Sequence record: OR067838.1
DNA: 64,000 nt
Reading direction: 5' to 3' (one strand)
Source of the DNA: Escherichia phage KKP 3954
Below, piece after piece: positions 7,058 to 15,623 of this stretch. Position numbers and translations under genes: made by a program. The notes under the pieces were generated by a model. That model was not told the origin of the DNA. It searched no databases and saw nothing but the letters and a program-made list of their open reading frames with translations. Every line of letters starts with the position of its first letter. The stretch's first letter is position 1.

Positions 7058-7081
7058 GCAAAAAGCCTCCAATAAGGAGGC
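7058..7081 (-). terminator. rho-independent terminator after the tRNA cluster
   Basis: GCCTCC-AATAA-GGAGGC hairpin followed on the minus strand by a U-tract. Confidence 0.5.
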
Positions 7082-7197
7082 CAATAAATACTGTTAATTT
7101 GAAATGCTTTATTATGATTGTGCGTTAAGGAGTCGCACCCCTCCATCTTAGAAGGAACCAGGCAAGGTCTTCAAAGATACCGCTGGCAAGCGATATT

Positions 7198-7276
7198 TGG
7201 AGGCGGGAATTGGATTTGAACCAATGATCTCCAGCATATGAAACTGGCGAGGACGACCAGACTCCTCTATCCCGCT
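7198..7276 (-). tRNA. tRNA-Met (anticodon CAT)
   Basis: Manual cloverleaf: CCA encoded, acceptor GGCGGGA/TCCCGCT, T-arm ATTGG-ATTTGAA-CCAAT, anticodon loop rc TTCATAT; long D-loop. Confidence 0.6.
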
Positions 7277-7280
7277 ATCA

Positions 7281-7352
7281 TGTATCCCGTGCTGGATTCG
7301 AACCAGCGTCACAATAAATTGTGGATCTCTTATCCTGTAAGTCTAACGGGAA
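7281..7352 (-). tRNA. tRNA-like element, no canonical anticodon arm (possible pseudo-tRNA)
   Basis: Perfect T-arm GCTGG-ATTCGAA-CCAGC and 6/7 acceptor complementarity, but no 5-bp anticodon stem found by hand. Confidence 0.25.
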
Positions 7353-7354
7353 AC

Positions 7355-7428
7355 TGGTTGTTTCGACAAGAATCGAACTTGTGTCTCACGATTATCAGTC
7401 GTGGGTTCTACCATTGAACTACGAAACA
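7355..7428 (-). tRNA. tRNA-Ile (anticodon GAT)
   Basis: CCA encoded; acceptor TGTTTCG/CGAAACA; T-arm ACAAG-AATCGAA-CTTGT; anticodon stem CACGA/TCGTG, loop rc CTGATAA. Confidence 0.7.
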
Positions 7429-7434
7429 TTTAAT

Positions 7435-7511
7435 TGGTCGGAATTGCAGGATTCGAACCTGCGACCCTACGCTCCCAAAGCGTATGCTCTACCAAACTGA
7501 GCTAAATTCCG
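7435..7511 (-). tRNA. tRNA-Pro (anticodon TGG)
   Basis: CCA encoded; acceptor CGGAATT/AATTCCG; T-arm GCAGG-ATTCGAA-CCTGC; D-arm GCTC-TACCAAACT-GAGC; anticodon stem TACGC/GCGTA. Confidence 0.75.
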
Positions 7512-7516
7512 TTATA

Positions 7517-7592
7517 TGGCTGGTCTGTCTGGATTTGAACCAAACCTACGACAGTCAAAGTGTCGTGTGCTACCGGACTACACTACAAACCA
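7517..7592 (-). tRNA. tRNA-Gln (anticodon TTG)
   Basis: CCA encoded; T-loop ATTTGAA; anticodon stem CGACA/TGTCG, loop rc CTTTGAC; one mismatch each in T-stem and acceptor. Confidence 0.6.
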
Positions 7593-7690
7593 ATAAATCA
7601 TTTAATGAAGGGCAACCAGAAGAAGTGTGAGAGAAGGAGAAAACCATGAGTAAAAGAGAAAGTTTTCTGGCAACCCTTTATTAAATAATT

Positions 7691-7764
7691 TGGAGCGTTC
7701 TACGAGGATCGAACTCGTGCCGCCGACTTGGAAGGACGGAATGCTACCGCTACACCAAGAACGC
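7691..7764 (-). tRNA. tRNA-Gly (anticodon TCC)
   Basis: CCA encoded; acceptor GCGTTCT/AGAACGC; T-arm ACGAG-GATCGAA-CTCGT; anticodon loop rc CTTCCAA; one mismatch in anticodon stem. Confidence 0.55.
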
Positions 7765-7775
7765 CCTATATATTT

Positions 7776-7805
7776 ACTATACTACATTTTACTATTTGTT
7801 GTCAA
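7776..7805 (-). promoter_or_regulatory. sigma70-like promoter upstream of tRNA-Gly
   Basis: Minus strand TTGACA-N18-TATAGT, placing the start site a few nt before tRNA-Gly. Confidence 0.4.
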
Positions 7806-8077
7806 GACTTTTATTGATTGGGACAGTGACGAGTATCCCGTTGGGTGACTAGCCCTACGTTCGGTAAGCTAACTTAAAATAATACAAAACCAAAGTCAAA
7901 TATTATTCTTCGTTGCTGTCGATGGGAGAGCCGCTTCTCATTTTGCCCCATCCAACCCTACTCCGGTCAAGTTTCGGGTGACTCTTTTTGTGATCAACAC
8001 AATACTAAGAACACTGTCTTTCGAGCAGACCTTGTGCACAGGAACGACGATCAATCACAATGCTCTTAATGTTGTGT

Positions 8078-8152
8078 TGGTGCTCCCACACTGAATCGAA
8101 CAGAGATCCACGGATTACAAAACCGTTGTAATAGCCATTATACTATAGGAGC
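8078..8152 (-). tRNA. tRNA-Thr (anticodon TGT)
   Basis: CCA encoded; acceptor GCTCCCA/TAGGAGC; T-loop AATCGAA; anticodon loop rc TTTGTAA; single mismatches in T and anticodon stems. Confidence 0.6.
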
Positions 8153-8158
8153 AATGCT

Positions 8159-8235
8159 GGGACTCGGCAGGATTCGATACCTGCAATTCCAGAAGCCTAT
8201 TGGCGACTGGGGGTTTACCTTAACTCTACAAGTCC
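8159..8235 (-). tRNA. tRNA-like element, unresolved fold
   Basis: T-arm-like GCAGG-ATTCGATA-CCTGC (8-nt loop) and acceptor-like complementarity GGACTCG/CAAGTCC; no canonical anticodon arm found by hand. Confidence 0.25.
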
Positions 8236-8242
8236 ATAATTC

Positions 8243-8328
8243 TGGCGATGAGTATAGGATTCGAACCTATATTGTTCTTTCGAACACGGATTAACAGTCC
8301 GCCGCTTAAACCGTTCAGCCAACTCATC
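8243..8328 (-). tRNA. tRNA with anticodon GTT (Asn-type) and an atypical 15-nt variable region
   Basis: CCA encoded; perfect acceptor GATGAGT/ACTCATC; T-arm ATAGG-ATTCGAA-CCTAT; anticodon stem ACGGA/TCCGC, loop rc CTGTTAA; extra GTTC-TTTC-GAAC hairpin. Confidence 0.45.
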
Positions 8329-8334
8329 TTAATT

Positions 8335-8422
8335 TGGTGGTGAGTGATGGAGTCGAACCACCCGAATCGCAATGATAACAGATTTACAGTCTGCCCCGCT
8401 ACCCCTACGGAATTAACTCACC
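8335..8422 (-). tRNA. tRNA-Tyr (anticodon GTA)
   Basis: CCA encoded; acceptor GGTGAGT/ACTCACC; T-loop AGTCGAA; long variable arm (class II); anticodon loop rc CTGTAAA. Confidence 0.7.
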
Positions 8423-8553
8423 TAAATACTAATATTTAAATTCTTTTTAAAATAGCCAGTGTTCGCACCACTAACTATGAGTTATCGGTAAGATGGTGGG
8501 GGGCTATCTTCCGAAAGTTTACTCTATTAAAGTAAGCTACATTAAAAAGAACT

Positions 8554-8639
8554 TGGCGGTAGATGTAGGACTCGAACCTACACGCCGTTTCCGACTACAG
8601 TTTAGCAAACTGTCGTGGCTACCATTTCACCAATCTACC
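8554..8639 (-). tRNA. tRNA-Ser (anticodon GCT)
   Basis: CCA encoded; acceptor GGTAGAT/ATCTACC; T-arm GTAGG-ACTCGAA-CCTAC; anticodon stem ACAGT/ACTGT, loop rc TTGCTAA; long variable arm. Confidence 0.75.
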
Positions 8640-8644
8640 TAATC

Positions 8645-8735
8645 TGGCGGAAGGAGGGAGAGTCGAACTCCCAAGGCTCTTTCAAGCTCGGCGGTTTTCA
8701 AGACCGTTTTCGTCGCCACATCGATTTGCCCTTCC
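8645..8735 (-). tRNA. tRNA-Ser (anticodon TGA)
   Basis: CCA encoded; T-arm GGGAG-AGTCGAA-CTCCC; anticodon stem GCGGT/ACCGT (G-U), loop rc CTTGAAA; long variable arm. Confidence 0.7.
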
Positions 8736-8969
8736 ATACTTATAATCTAACATAAAATAATGATTGTTGTCAATACTTTTTTAAAACATTTTACCATGAA
8801 TGGTGACTCCACCAACCCCCGTTCTCCACGAACGGTGCTCTTCGAGCATTTATGTCTTCTAATATAACCGTGGCCTTTGTTTATAATGTCTGACATACTT
8901 GCCTCATTCTCTGCCACCATGATCAGTAGTGGGTTCAAATCACTTGAGCTAATTCATGTTAAAATGTTC

Positions 8970-9044
8970 TGGTGTCTTTACAAGGAATCGAACCTTGACT
9001 AAGAGTTTAGAAGACTCCTGTGCTATCCATTACACCATAAAGAC
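8970..9044 (-). tRNA. tRNA-Arg (anticodon TCT)
   Basis: CCA encoded; acceptor GTCTTTA/TAAAGAC; T-arm CAAGG-AATCGAA-CCTTG; anticodon loop rc CTTCTAA. Confidence 0.7.
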
Positions 9045-9046
9045 GT

Positions 9047-9121
9047 TGGTGGCCCTGGCTGGTTTCGATCCAGCTACCTATCGGTTATGAGCCGACAGCT
9101 CTCCCATTGAGCTACAGGGCC
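9047..9121 (-). tRNA. tRNA with anticodon CAT (second copy; initiator Met or lysidine-Ile)
   Basis: CCA encoded; acceptor GGCCCTG/CAGGGCC; T-arm GCTGG-TTTCGAT-CCAGC; D-arm GCTC-TCCCATT-GAGC; anticodon loop rc CTCATAA. Confidence 0.7.
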
Positions 9122-9368
9122 ATAAATGTGGTAACAGAGACGCTGACGATTGTAGAGAACCGCTACATTCTCTAAGACCAAGCCCAACTTTCAGCGTAAA
9201 AGTTCTTGAGCCGAGACTATTCCTTTTCCTCTTTGGTAGCTAACCTCTGAAGAAGTAGTCTCTAACACTATCCGCAGTGCAAGCCCCTCTTAACAAAAGT
9301 CAACGACCCTGTTACCACACTTGATGAACGTATCCTAACATATGAAGGATACGTTTGTCAATAGTTAT

Positions 9369-12872: not shown

Positions 12873-13217
12873 ATGAAAGTTTGGATAGATGATATGCGGA
12901 ACCCAGCCGACTATGGACAGGAAGATGCAATTTGGTTTAAAACGTCACAAGAAGCTATGGCCTTTCTCAATGATCCTGCTAAACTGTATCGAAGAGTAAC
13001 CGAGTGGTCTTTTGACAATGATTTAGGTATGGAGTCAGACCAAGATGGGTATGATGTTTTCCTGCACCTGGAAGAACTTCTGGCGTTTGGTAAACCTTGC
13101 TTTGGTTCACCTACCATTTTCGTGCATACTTCTAATCCCGCCGCTGGGGATAAATTCATGCTTGCAAAAGAATCCATGCTGCGTTATGGTATTAAAATGA
13201 TTCGTGTGCACTACTAA
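12873..13217 (+). CDS. hypothetical protein
   Basis: 114 aa; AGGAGG RBS. Confidence 0.55.
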   Translation: MKVWIDDMRNPADYGQEDAIWFKTSQEAMAFLNDPAKLYRRVTEWSFDNDLGMESDQDGYDVFLHLEELLAFGKPCFGSPTIFVHTSNPAAGDKFMLAKESMLRYGIKMIRVHY

Positions 13218-13226
13218 GGAGAGAAC

Positions 13227-13370
13227 ATGCATCATTTGGTTTGGTCGGAACAAGAAGAGGACGAAGGTTACTTTATCTACCGAGAAGAAGAGGATTGGCC
13301 CGACACAAGTAATGATCTTTTACTTCCAGACACTAGTTTTTTCGAGGATAACTTAAGAGAGGAGGATTAG
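13227..13370 (+). CDS. small acidic hypothetical protein (47 aa)
   Basis: Not in track (<60 aa); AGGAGAGAAC RBS then ATG; fills the gap between flanking genes. Confidence 0.35.
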   Translation: MHHLVWSEQEEDEGYFIYREEEDWPDTSNDLLLPDTSFFEDNLREED

Positions 13371-13376
13371 GAAACA

Positions 13377-13733
13377 ATGAGTGGTATTGAAAACAACATT
13401 TGTTACCAACCTCTTACCTGGATGGGTGAGGGTCATTATGCGCAACGTGTTATCGTCTGTGCTGCAAATAAGTATATTTTGAATAATGGTGAAGAGTTAA
13501 TTATTCCTTGTGTTCGACATGCAAATCCTGTACTATATGCACAGTTAAACGTGTTGAAAGAAGCAGGTGTAATCAACAAAACTTTGTGCACACCAGATAA
13601 TCAAGGCTTTATCGATCAGTATTACAATTGGTGGAGTCGTGCGGATGCTTACATCATCGCGGAAAATGCTGACCAGATCGACCATGAGCGTAATGGTCAC
13701 GACCATGAATTATTTAGCGAGGGATTATACTAA
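13377..13733 (+). CDS. hypothetical protein
   Basis: 118 aa; GGAGG RBS. Confidence 0.55.
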   Translation: MSGIENNICYQPLTWMGEGHYAQRVIVCAANKYILNNGEELIIPCVRHANPVLYAQLNVLKEAGVINKTLCTPDNQGFIDQYYNWWSRADAYIIAENADQIDHERNGHDHELFSEGLY

Positions 13734-14284
13734 TGTTTATTACAAGCGATTTGCATTTTATGCATAAACGTATTCGAGAGTTTGCTCCTGAATATCGTCC
13801 CTGGGAAGATATGGACCACATGACAGAAGCCTTGATCGAAGCATGGAACAAATGTGCTACTACTCCTGGTGTTAAGATGTGGCATTTGGGCGACTTCTGT
13901 TTCGGAACTGAAGAAGATACCCGTAAAATTGCTTCCCGTCTCCAAGGAGATATCACCTACTGTGTTGGGAACCATGACTACAGCAAACACCGAGAAGTGC
14001 TTGCAGAGTATGGAGAAGTGGTGTATTATGACGAAGTGAAATATCAGAAGCTGTTCTTCGTCTTAAGCCATTACCCTATGGCCTCCTGGAATAAACAAGG
14101 TCGTGGATCAATCATGCTACACGGGCATTCCCACGGATCTTTCCCTGATGAAGCTTATGGTAAAATGTTAGATGTGGGTTGGGATGCACACGGAAAAATC
14201 TTGCATTTTGATGAGATAATTTCTATGATGAGTAAACGAGATATCGTGACTGTAGACCATCACAAAATAATCAAAGGAGAGTAA
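13733..14284 (+). CDS. calcineurin-like metallophosphoesterase
   Basis: 183 aa; phosphoesterase motifs HLGDFCFG, GNHD, HGHSHG; first gene of RNA-repair-like trio. Confidence 0.65.
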   Translation: MFITSDLHFMHKRIREFAPEYRPWEDMDHMTEALIEAWNKCATTPGVKMWHLGDFCFGTEEDTRKIASRLQGDITYCVGNHDYSKHREVLAEYGEVVYYDEVKYQKLFFVLSHYPMASWNKQGRGSIMLHGHSHGSFPDEAYGKMLDVGWDAHGKILHFDEIISMMSKRDIVTVDHHKIIKGE

Positions 14285-14285
14285 T

Positions 14286-15218
14286 GTGACTAAATTTAAT
14301 TGCGACGATTTGGTTGAAAAAGGTTTAGTTCATAAGAAAACATATAAAGAAGGAGAGTATTCTGGTCTATCTGTTCTTAAGTATAAGAACAAAGTTTTCT
14401 GGGATAACTTATGGAGCATTGATTCTCGTCTTCTAGAATGTCGCGGAATCGTTGTTGATGCTGATGACAATGTTGTTATTTGGCCTTTCACTAAGATTTT
14501 TAATCGTTTTGAGAATGGCACAGATCTACCATTGGATGAACTTGTAGATGTGGTTCGTAAAGTAAATGGTTTTATGGCCTCTGTAGGTGTATATAAAGGT
14601 CAACTTATTGTATCGACAACAGGAAGCCTTGAATCAGATTTTGCAAGTATTGCAAAGAATCGTATTGTTTCAGAGTGTGATGACATAGAACATTTCATCA
14701 AATGGACAGAGAGTGCAAAAGCAACTTTCCTTTTTGAAATCTGTGATCCTTCTGATCCGCATATTGTCGAAGAAGAACCAGGTGCATACTTAATTGGTGC
14801 CAGAATTCAAAATCCTGATGGGACAAGTTTTATGTTACCTGAAGGTGCTCTTGATGGAATTGCTTCTGTCACCAAATTTAAGCGTCCTGAAGTTCATCCA
14901 ATGGTTAAGTTTTCAGATGTTGTTGAAATGTCTAAACATTGTAAACACGAAGGGTTTATTGTTCGTGAAACAAACTGTCCGTTTAACTTACTTTTAAAGA
15001 TTAAGTCACCATACTATCTTACTAAGAAGTTTCTTATGCGTGGTGGAGATAAGAAGTGGGATCTTATTTGGGATAATCCAAAAAATGCCAAACAAATTGT
15101 TGACGAAGAATATTACACTTTGTTAGAATGGATTCGAAATAATTTTACGAAGACTCAATGGGCTGCTTTAAATCAGCAAGAGCGACGTGAAGAAATCGAA
15201 AACTTCTTTGGAGGATAA
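14286..15218 (+). CDS. nucleotidyltransferase of the ligase family (RNA-ligase-like)
   Basis: 310 aa; GTG start after AGGAGAG; motif I-like KVNG, motif IV-like EGFIV, motif V-like LKIK. Confidence 0.5.
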   Translation: MTKFNCDDLVEKGLVHKKTYKEGEYSGLSVLKYKNKVFWDNLWSIDSRLLECRGIVVDADDNVVIWPFTKIFNRFENGTDLPLDELVDVVRKVNGFMASVGVYKGQLIVSTTGSLESDFASIAKNRIVSECDDIEHFIKWTESAKATFLFEICDPSDPHIVEEEPGAYLIGARIQNPDGTSFMLPEGALDGIASVTKFKRPEVHPMVKFSDVVEMSKHCKHEGFIVRETNCPFNLLLKIKSPYYLTKKFLMRGGDKKWDLIWDNPKNAKQIVDEEYYTLLEWIRNNFTKTQWAALNQQERREEIENFFGG

Positions 15219-15623
15219 ATGAAACAACTTATCATTTTACGTGGTGTTTCAGGTGCTGGTAAATCTACAGTAGCAGAAATTATTTCTGAAGGTTATTGGC
15301 CTATCTGCGAGGCAGATCAATATCATTACACAGAAAGTGGTGTTTACGATTGGAAGCCAGAAAATGTAGGTAAAGCACACGCATGGTGTCAGAGTATTGT
15401 TCGTGATGCTATGGCGTCTAATCTTAACAAGATTATTGTTTCTAACACTTCAACCACAGAGAAAGAACTTAAACCTTATCTAGCTCTTGCTGAAGAGTTT
15501 GGTTATCAAGTTATCTCTTTAGTTGTTGAAAATAGGCACGGTAATGATTCAATTCACGAGGTTCCACAATATATCCGTGATCAGCAAGAGAAACGTCTTC
15601 GTGGTTCACTTAAACTTCAATAA
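15219..15623 (+). CDS. polynucleotide 5'-kinase (P-loop, T4 Pnk kinase-domain-like)
   Basis: 134 aa; Walker A GVSGAGKST; IVSNTSTTEKE resembles the T4 Pnk IISDTN region. Confidence 0.6.
   Translation: MKQLIILRGVSGAGKSTVAEIISEGYWPICEADQYHYTESGVYDWKPENVGKAHAWCQSIVRDAMASNLNKIIVSNTSTTEKELKPYLALAEEFGYQVISLVVENRHGNDSIHEVPQYIRDQQEKRLRGSLKLQ

Follow-up and report, generated by a model that had tools for sequence, protein, structure and literature searches.

To our knowledge, a long variable arm in bacteria is restricted to the transfer RNAs (tRNAs) for serine, leucine, tyrosine and selenocysteine (class II). Apart from true tRNAs, mascRNA, the gammaherpesvirus vtRNAs and the species 1 and 2 RNAs of phage T4 combine a tRNA-like upper half with an anticodon region that is shortened or closed, and tRNA-processing enzymes excise them. 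Phage T5 has two genes, RNA1 and RNA2, annotated as 'tRNA-like stable RNA with unknown functions'. We analysed a 64,000-nucleotide (nt) stretch of Escherichia phage KKP 3954 (OR067838.1), referred to here as the window. Its minus strand carries, at 7198-9121, 12 tRNA genes and two tRNA-like genes. The analysis centred on a tRNA(GTT) with a long variable arm (8243-8328) and on the two tRNA-like genes, B1 (7283-7352) and B2 (8159-8235). We know of no sequence relationship between B1 or B2 and mascRNA, the vtRNAs or the T4 RNAs.

The cluster region (2.3 kb) shares 98% nucleotide identity with many genomes of Phapecoctavirus, the phAPEC8-like E. coli myoviruses of about 150 kb; the genes are the tRNA genes of a lytic phage of this type. 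ARAGORN called 10 tRNAs in the window (CAT, GAT, TGG, TTG, TCC, TGT, GTT, GCT, TCT and CAT). The Rfam tRNA model RF00005, with a gathering cut-off of 29 bits, recovered the same 10 at 50-72 bits and added Tyr-GTA (8338-8422) at 39 bits. A previous reading made from the letters alone (the sequence-only reading) had listed a cluster with two CAT tRNAs and these isotypes, all with an encoded CCA. The genes lay where that reading had them, on the minus strand, and the CCA was encoded at the 3' end of 12 of 12 tRNAs. It had also reported a 15-nt variable region with a hairpin in the GTT gene, which is present as GTTC-GAAA-GAAC followed by AAT, the plus-strand complement having been quoted. Lastly, it had described 7281-7352 and 8159-8235 as having T arms and acceptor-like ends but no canonical anticodon arm; we found perfect T arms and acceptor stems at both, with UUUA and AAUA in place of a 7-nt anticodon loop.

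The tRNA(GTT) gene was called Asn-gtt by ARAGORN and scored 60.5 bits with RF00005, the match spanning model positions 1-71. It folds into a full cloverleaf with the 7-nt anticodon loop CUGUUAA and ends in G73 and CCA. Its variable region of 15 nt consists of a 4-base-pair (bp) stem closed by a GAAA loop of the GNRA type (GUUC-GAAA-GAAC), with AAU on the 3' side. The variable loop measures 5 nt in E. coli asnT, as in all four E. coli asn genes, and the gene thus departs from a class I body. Positions 25-43, 19 consecutive nucleotides, are exactly those of asnT, and the homologue of an Erwinia phage has a host-type 4-bp D arm too. Because of this identity and this D arm, the lineage looks, as judged from its sequences, like a tRNA-Asn that gained a hairpin, not like a tRNA-Ser with a mutated anticodon. 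Like class II bacterial tRNAs, tRNA(GTT) has a base-paired variable arm of more than 10 nt that covaries among relatives, G73 as in tRNA-Ser, and a D stem of 3 bp with G13.A22. It differs from them in its anticodon GUU, in an anticodon arm equal to that of the class I host tRNA-Asn, and in the shortness of its arm stems (3-4 bp); the acceptor stems of its family are, moreover, mostly Asn-like (U1-A72 and C2-G71).

Homologues of 83-87 nt were found in Justusliebigvirus, T5-like Salmonella and Escherichia phages, Proteus Novosibvirus, Klebsiella Marfavirus, Karamvirus (as 'tRNA-Asx'), Erwinia Henunavirus and a Pseudomonas jumbo phage. No copy of the long-arm gene turned up in a BLAST search of 5,426 E. 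coli genomes. T5 proper carries a class I tRNA-Asn with an altered anticodon stem. In an alignment of 11 long-arm sequences from eight phage lineages, 99.2% of cells were paired and 18 of 24 pairs showed compensatory change, including all four pairs of the variable arm. All helices covaried, at a level reached by none of 500 shuffles. A pattern scan of IMG/VR for a host-type Asn anticodon arm with a long spacer after it gave at least 120 contigs. Among the matches listed, ARAGORN assigned Asn-gtt to every gene recovered (106 of 106, 79-91 nt). The family statistics given here and below refer to 91 distinct members; the variable region folded as a hairpin in 88 of the 91, mostly with stems of 3-4 bp. 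The extra arm is a conserved family trait. Public phage records annotate the gene as tRNA-Asn, and the feature has gone unnoticed because pipelines label it plain 'tRNA-Asn' (once 'tRNA-Asx'). The gene encodes a genuine tRNA with an unusual structure.

Which amino acid this tRNA would carry depends on the synthetase that reads it. The identity set of E. coli asparaginyl-tRNA synthetase (AsnRS) comprises the anticodon (G34-U35-U36) and G73, whereas serine identity is independent of the anticodon, seryl-tRNA synthetase (SerRS) reading the variable arm, G73 and acceptor pairs (PMC9976931). The first two acceptor pairs of bacterial tRNA-Ser are conserved as G1-C72 and G2-C71, with C2-G71 acting as an antideterminant for SerRS (PMC9976931). 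Both elements of the AsnRS set, GUU and G73, are present in the window tRNA(GTT). So are the long variable arm and G73 of a tRNA-Ser, but of the two conserved acceptor pairs only G1-C72 is found, the second pair being A2-U71. Its acceptor pairs are therefore ambiguous between asparagine and serine. In the family, G73 occurred in 87 of the 91 members, the 1-72 pair was U-A in 58 members and G-C in 31, and C-G stood at 2-71 in 36. Because of these counts the family looks Asn-like at its acceptor end. The hairpin of the window copy begins with the nucleotide next to position 43, and three bases on its 3' side stay unpaired, an arrangement shared by 36 of the 91; the register of the phage's own tRNA-Ser(GCT) is different. 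Since the acceptor end of the family is Asn-like and the hairpin arrangement is unlike that of tRNA-Ser(GCT), the sequences favour asparagine over serine.

If SerRS instead charged tRNA(GUU) through its long arm and G73, serine would be inserted at AAY codons and the phage would encode a mistranslating tRNA. The window copy does combine a long variable arm, G73, C11-G24 and G1-C72, and its variable region agrees in length and in its GAAA loop with that of tRNA-Ser(GCT); serine identity, moreover, relies on the variable arm and not on the anticodon (PMC9976931). A precedent exists in nematodes, in which nev-tRNAs with a variable arm and Gly or Ile anticodons, that is, anticodons of neither leucine nor serine, are charged with leucine (PMC3333845). 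Like the phage family, these place a class II body on a class I anticodon and are conserved within a clade. They differ in that they derive from tRNA-Leu and are mischarged by their body, whereas the phage family looks tRNA-Asn-derived in sequence and keeps the AsnRS identity set. The anticodon arm identical to that of the host tRNA-Asn and the one homologue with a host-type D arm point to an Asn-derived lineage. The U1-A72 and C2-G71 pairs of many members conflict with those of tRNA-Ser, as does A2-U71 in the window copy, and the hairpin register does not match. In addition, the phage's own proteins would suffer a proteome-wide substitution of asparagine by serine. We consider serine charging very unlikely. 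As charging by AsnRS (anticodon and G73) and by SerRS (arm and G73) could in principle both occur, the long-arm tRNA(GUU) is a natural test case of the identity rules.

As a side observation, the long-arm tRNA-Asn of Pseudomonas phage BRkr (L012:125-211) has U1-A72, and all enterobacterial phage copies examined have G1-C72. U1-A72 is the pair used by GatCAB on Asp-tRNA-Asn. The 1-72 pair of the long-arm tRNA-Asn may thus match the route by which the host makes Asn-tRNA, although this remark is anecdotal.

B1 and B2 are built differently. B1 has the acceptor stem UUCCCGU/ACGGGAU (6 bp plus U1.U72), the D-like hairpin CUUA-CAGGA-UAAG, a closed central hairpin with a 5-bp stem (CACAA-UUUA-UUGUG), a canonical T arm (GCUGG-UUCGAAU-CCAGC) and the 3' tail A-CA. 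B2 has a 7-bp acceptor stem (GGACUUG/CGAGUCC), the D region UAGAGUUAAGGUAAACC, the closed central hairpin CCAG..GCC-AAUA-GGC..CUGG with a 4-nt loop, and the T arm GCAGG-UAUCGAAU-CCUGC with an 8-nt loop. ARAGORN called neither. With RF00005, B1 scored 24.3 bits in a full-length alignment without an anticodon loop, and B2 scored 20.3 bits in an end-to-end alignment that skipped the anticodon loop, both below the cut-off. Their folding z-scores were -3.0 and -3.1, respectively. Both RNAs stack an acceptor stem on a 5-bp T stem with a T loop, as a tRNA does, and neither has a 7-nt anticodon loop with U33 and a purine at 37. Neither shows the features of transfer-messenger RNA (tmRNA), tRNA-Sec or allo-tRNA (8/4 or 9/3). 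A 9-bp acceptor, allo-tRNA-like reading of B1 was rejected, as its relatives do not keep the extended stem, and tmRNA was ruled out, as ARAGORN called none. In Rfam scans of the window and related loci, by gathering cut-off and by E-value, B1 and B2 matched no curated family except tRNA. The weak YrlA, mascRNA and plastid matches all fell on true tRNAs; the mascRNA model, in particular, matched Arg-TCT alone (20.3 bits, cut-off 42.5) and not B1 or B2.

B2 proved homologous to the T5 gene 'rna3, putative tRNA-like RNA' (RefSeq NC_005859, 33877-33949), which lies right after tRNA-Asn. The two share the motif GUAGAGUUAAG(G)UAAACC, an AUUG junction, an AUCGAAU-type T loop, the layout of acceptor stem, D region, closed hairpin and T arm, and a position directly downstream of tRNA-Asn. 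They differ in the acceptor stem, the central hairpin and the T stem, where compensatory changes have accumulated, and in their 3' ends (A-CCA in T5 rna3, C-AGC in the window B2); the tRNA-Asn upstream of rna3, moreover, is class I. The window B2 thus has the D-region motif, the AUUG junction and the three covarying helices of the rna3 family. An IMG/VR scan with the shared B2 motif returned T5-like copies and divergent members on contigs of about 55 kb and 262 kb; several other matches looked like chance. Across 596 Gb of bacterial and archaeal genomes, the exact motif gave 18 matches, none with acceptor pairing and all chance-like. Within the window, no antisense target of the D-region motif was found except B2 itself. 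On contigs of about 55 kb from IMG/VR (L019:815-1016 and its equivalents in L041 and L031), we also observed arrays of irregular tRNA-like RNAs with CCA ends and AACAA separators; ARAGORN called none of them, and one array member belongs to the B2 family, with a central hairpin of 26-44 nt.

Homologues of B1 follow tRNA-Tyr in the Vequintavirinae (rV5-like) phages A7_1 and LTH01, and another, ending A-CCA, lies on a 47-kb IMG/VR contig (L053). A further pattern scan of IMG/VR for B1 relatives returned only two already-known loci, and no B1 homologue was found in T5. Covariation supported both structures. The B1 alignment had 97.8% of cells paired and compensatory change in 10 of 23 pairs. MAFFT misaligned the length-variable central hairpin. 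The helix-only alignment of B2 had 95.7% of cells paired and compensatory change in 14 of 17 pairs; RNAalifold, given the real B2 sequences, arrived independently at these three helices and found compensation in 11 of 16 pairs.

We asked whether B1 and B2 could still decode through non-standard anticodon loops, such as a triloop or an 8-nt loop. The central arm of B1 in rV5-like phages has 17 nt, precisely as many as an anticodon arm, and ARAGORN fitted the L053 homologue as 'tRNA-Val(aac)', a call that we rejected as a forced fit. The loops, however, differ in every lineage (UAU, UCU, AAC, UUUA and CUUA in B1; AAUA, AAGA, CAACCA, UUCG and much longer inserts in the B2 family), no loop sequence is conserved, the arms range from 14 to about 44 nt, the longest being in B2 relatives, and U33 and purine 37 are absent. 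We give decoding almost no credence.

Decay is the second explanation to be weighed, in which B1 and B2 would be functionless pseudo-tRNAs carried inside a conserved cluster. Both lack an anticodon loop and, in the window, an encoded CCA; the 3' tails differ among close relatives (ACAU, ACCU, CCAA and ACCA); and public records annotate none of these genes save T5 rna3, itself 'putative'. Against this, compensatory substitutions preserve every helix across phage subfamilies and families, and the central hairpin of B1 and B2 stays closed despite complete sequence turnover, that of B1 always to a loop of 3-4 nt. B2 is, furthermore, one of the three elements best conserved between Phapecoctavirus and Justusliebigvirus: compared with PHB05 (Justusliebigvirus), it is 96% identical, next to Ser-GCT (96.5%) and the initiator-like CAT (94.9%), and the nine other tRNAs are 62-74% identical. 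The identity of these three elements, as an observation apart, suggests strong constraint or recent exchange. The compensatory changes make decay highly improbable and point to conserved tRNA mimics that do not decode.

A third explanation takes B1 and B2 as processing handles, that is, sites for RNase P and 3'-processing enzymes that separate neighbouring tRNAs (Asn from Thr, and Ile from the initiator-like tRNA). RNase P recognises acceptor and T-arm helices. These helices are the best-kept structural parts of B1 and B2, which lie between tRNAs with spacers of 2-7 nt, and B2 follows tRNA-Asn in both T5-like and phAPEC8-like phages. The adjacent true tRNAs, however, would supply RNase P sites without them. 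The D-like sequence, needless for such a handle, is strongly kept even between distant phages, as CUUACAGGAUAAGA in B1 and as UAGAGUUAAG(G)UAAACC in B2. Two distant B2 relatives (L035 and L038) have no flanking tRNA called by ARAGORN, and several relatives lack a canonical T loop. We regard a role as processing handles as unlikely.

As far as their sequences and helices indicate, B1 and B2 are conserved, structured, phage-restricted, tRNA-derived RNAs that cannot decode. The sequence-only reading had offered pseudo-tRNAs, tRNA-derived regulatory RNAs and tRNAs with unusual structure as options for the three loci, and it would have yielded to standard finders assigning canonical folds to all of them. 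The last option holds for 8243-8328, to which ARAGORN and Rfam did assign a GTT tRNA; its anomaly stands despite these calls because the variable arm is conserved and covarying. For B1 and B2, to which the finders gave no such fold, a tRNA-derived non-decoding RNA fits best, with a regulatory role only putative, and decaying pseudo-tRNAs are unlikely. Being widespread or conserved in phages, the three odd members of the cluster do not stem from sequencing errors either. In the literature that we searched on class II or long-arm phage tRNA-Asn, T5 tRNA-like RNAs and Phapecoctavirus tRNAs, no description of the long arm of a phage tRNA-Asn or of mimics such as B1 and B2 was found.

The roles proposed for these RNAs relate to host defences that target tRNAs. 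The PARIS nuclease AriB targets host tRNA-Asn(GUU), cutting between positions 40 and 41, and the tRNA-Asn(GUU) of T5 helps to rescue infection from PARIS (PMC12409363). This rescuing tRNA is class I. Known escape tRNAs of phages (T5 Lys, Thr and Asn against PARIS AriB, and Tyr against retron Eco7; PMC12409363, PMC11555353, PMC10264068) have counterparts in the window, which also encodes Asn-GUU, Thr-UGU and Tyr-GUA and, near the cluster, an RNA-repair cassette. They differ in that the known variants are substituted in the anticodon stem-loop, whereas the window tRNA-Asn, by its sequence, keeps the host stem-loop and adds an arm.

The cassette comprises four genes at 12873-15623 on the plus strand, 4-6 kb from the cluster: a cyclic-phosphate-processing receiver domain (cREC) protein (12873-13217; PF20274, 6.7e-17), a metallophosphoesterase (13733-14284), a T4 Rnl1-type RNA ligase (14286-15218; PF09511, 3.5e-15) and an AAA_33 P-loop kinase (15219-15623). 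Most genes of this stretch bear the label hypothetical in the AV126 record, and no gene is named as an RNA-repair enzyme. The complete RNA-repair cassette near the cluster shows an investment by the phage in countering tRNA damage and indicates that such damage exerts selection on it.

We propose that tRNA(GTT) would most likely read AAY codons as asparagine and top up or replace the host tRNA-Asn during infection. The extra arm would alter recognition by tRNA-binding enzymes, including host nucleases that cut tRNA-Asn. B1 and B2 keep the acceptor/T-arm half and a D-like core, and a closed hairpin that drifts freely in length and sequence stands where a tRNA has its anticodon arm. Their probable products are stable RNAs of about 70-77 nt. 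Speculatively, and with low confidence, they would bind proteins that recognise the tRNA body, acting as competitors or decoys and not in translation; competition of viral tRNAs for immune effectors has been raised as a possibility (PMC12409363).

Taken together, tRNA(GTT) would be a decoding tRNA-Asn with an acquired arm, and B1 and B2 would be conserved non-decoding tRNA mimics. We consider this joint reading of the sequences probable, although well short of certain, and several points weigh against it. The window tRNA(GTT) resembles the phage's tRNA-Ser(GCT) in G1-C72, G73 and a variable arm of 15 nt, so that charging by SerRS is compatible with its sequence. At the AriB site (UAAUC|C) its anticodon stem does not differ from the host sequence, and any evasion of the nuclease would therefore have to be steric. 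The own tRNA-Asn of a T5 relative was insufficient against PARIS (PMC12409363). As to B1 and B2, the helix alignments were built by hand with loops as placeholders, which biases them towards pairing; the covariation of B1 comes from six sequences of three lineages; the B2 D region looks invariant in part because the search used an exact pattern; and neither gene encodes CCA in the window, while many relatives end in ACCA.

A bolder proposal would have either the long-arm tRNA(GUU) family take on a dual or switched identity through charging by SerRS, with some AAY codons read as serine, or the arm serve as a steric shield against AriB-like nucleases, with B1 and B2 soaking up the same effectors. 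We think this decidedly unlikely; if it were true, phages would remodel tRNA architecture, beyond the sequence of the anticodon loop, as a weapon.

The remaining genes of the cluster, all on the minus strand, are more conventional. Two tRNAs have the anticodon CAT. The first, at 9047-9121 (ARAGORN; RF00005, 64.5 bits), aligns with the T5 gene annotated tRNAI2(CAU), GGCCC.../...GGGCC-A-CCA, and is, from this alignment, probably tRNA-Ile2, a lysidine-dependent reader of AUA. The second, at 7198-7276 (ARAGORN; 50.1 bits), aligns with the T5 gene annotated as initiator tRNA fMet and has U73. Its 1:72 pair is mismatched (A.C), as it is in PHB05 (C.C) and T5 fMet (U.U), and this together with CAU is expected of an initiator; the anticodon stem (CCAGU/GCUGG) lacks the three successive G-C pairs that an initiator has at its lower end. 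One public record labels its orthologue 'pseudo-CAT'. By sequence it is probably an initiator-like tRNA, and a pair of CAT tRNAs consisting of Ile2 and initiator is ordinary for large phages.

The sequence-only reading had also listed a tRNA-Ser(TGA) with an encoded CCA, which lies at 8645-8735. ARAGORN missed this gene and its Rfam match was tRNA-Sec-like and below threshold (35.7 bits, cut-off 47), but homology to T5-like tRNA-Ser2(GGA) bears it out: the two have in common an atypical D arm (CAAAUCGAUGUGGCGACGAAAA in the window; shared form CAAAUCGAnnUGGCGACGAAAA), and their other stems show compensatory changes. This D arm has a 3-nt linker and a stem that opens on an A.C pair.

The other tRNAs are Arg(TCT) (8970-9044, canonical; ARAGORN, 66.3 bits with RF00005), the class II Ser(GCT) with G73 (8554-8639; ARAGORN, 56 bits, the gene 96.5% identical to its PHB05 orthologue), the class II Tyr(GTA) (8335-8422; RF00005, without an ARAGORN call in the window, its orthologues annotated Tyr or pseudo-GTA in relatives' records), Thr(TGT) (8078-8152; ARAGORN, 55.6 bits), Gly(TCC) (7691-7764; ARAGORN, 56.1 bits), Gln(TTG) (7517-7592; ARAGORN, 54.9 bits), Pro(TGG) (7435-7511; ARAGORN, 70.8 bits) and Ile(GAT) (7355-7428; ARAGORN, 72.2 bits). 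In Justusliebigvirus and rV5-like relatives (L004:1610-1688, L005:1442-1520 and L006:1364-1442), we observed a tRNA-Arg(UCU)-like gene without a D arm, of which the window has no copy. The 7-nt UAUCUCA replaces its D arm, its variable region of 23 nt contains a hairpin, and it scored 34-40 bits with the Rfam tRNA model without an ARAGORN call.

Three promoter-like sites, all of them consensus matches with a perfect TTGACA, occupy three large gaps upstream of tRNA groups on the minus strand. They are TTGACA-N18-TG-TAGGAT (9332-9361; a consensus match upstream of the first tRNA pair), TTGACA-N18-TG-TAGATT (8744-8773; 9 nt upstream of Ser(TGA) and kept in other Phapecoctaviruses) and TTGACA-N18-TATAGT (7776-7805; upstream of Gly, with 11 of 12 matches). 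The 5' end of Ser(TGA) lies 9 nt past the -10 box of the second. Downstream of the last gene of the cluster, a terminator-like hairpin followed by a T run matched the consensus (7064-7082). The cluster is probably transcribed from three sigma-70-type promoters, and its polycistronic precursors would be cut by RNase P and 3'-processing enzymes of the host; such sites, however, were no commoner in the region than in shuffled sequence. Within the cluster we noted four tRNA-free gaps of 130-310 nt (7765-8077, 8423-8553, 8740-8969 and 9122-9340). They are poorly conserved in Justusliebigvirus, and T5 annotates several 'stable RNAs of unknown function' in similar gaps. The 98-nt spacer between Gln and Gly (7593-7690, minus strand) could form a long imperfect hairpin (GGGUUGCCAGAA ... 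UUCUGGUUGCCC), and the opposite strand holds a 12-codon open reading frame with AGGAG ahead of it.

For the biology of these phages, B1 and B2 mean that the 'tRNA-like stable RNAs of unknown function' of the T5 annotation have counterparts in other phage families, and covariation-supported models of B1 and B2 are candidates for RNA family databases and for decoy tests against tRNA-targeting immunity. The long-arm tRNA-Asn is a possible lead on how translation is kept up when host defences cut tRNA-Asn. Its significance would rise sharply if the arm changes amino acid identity or confers resistance to nucleases.

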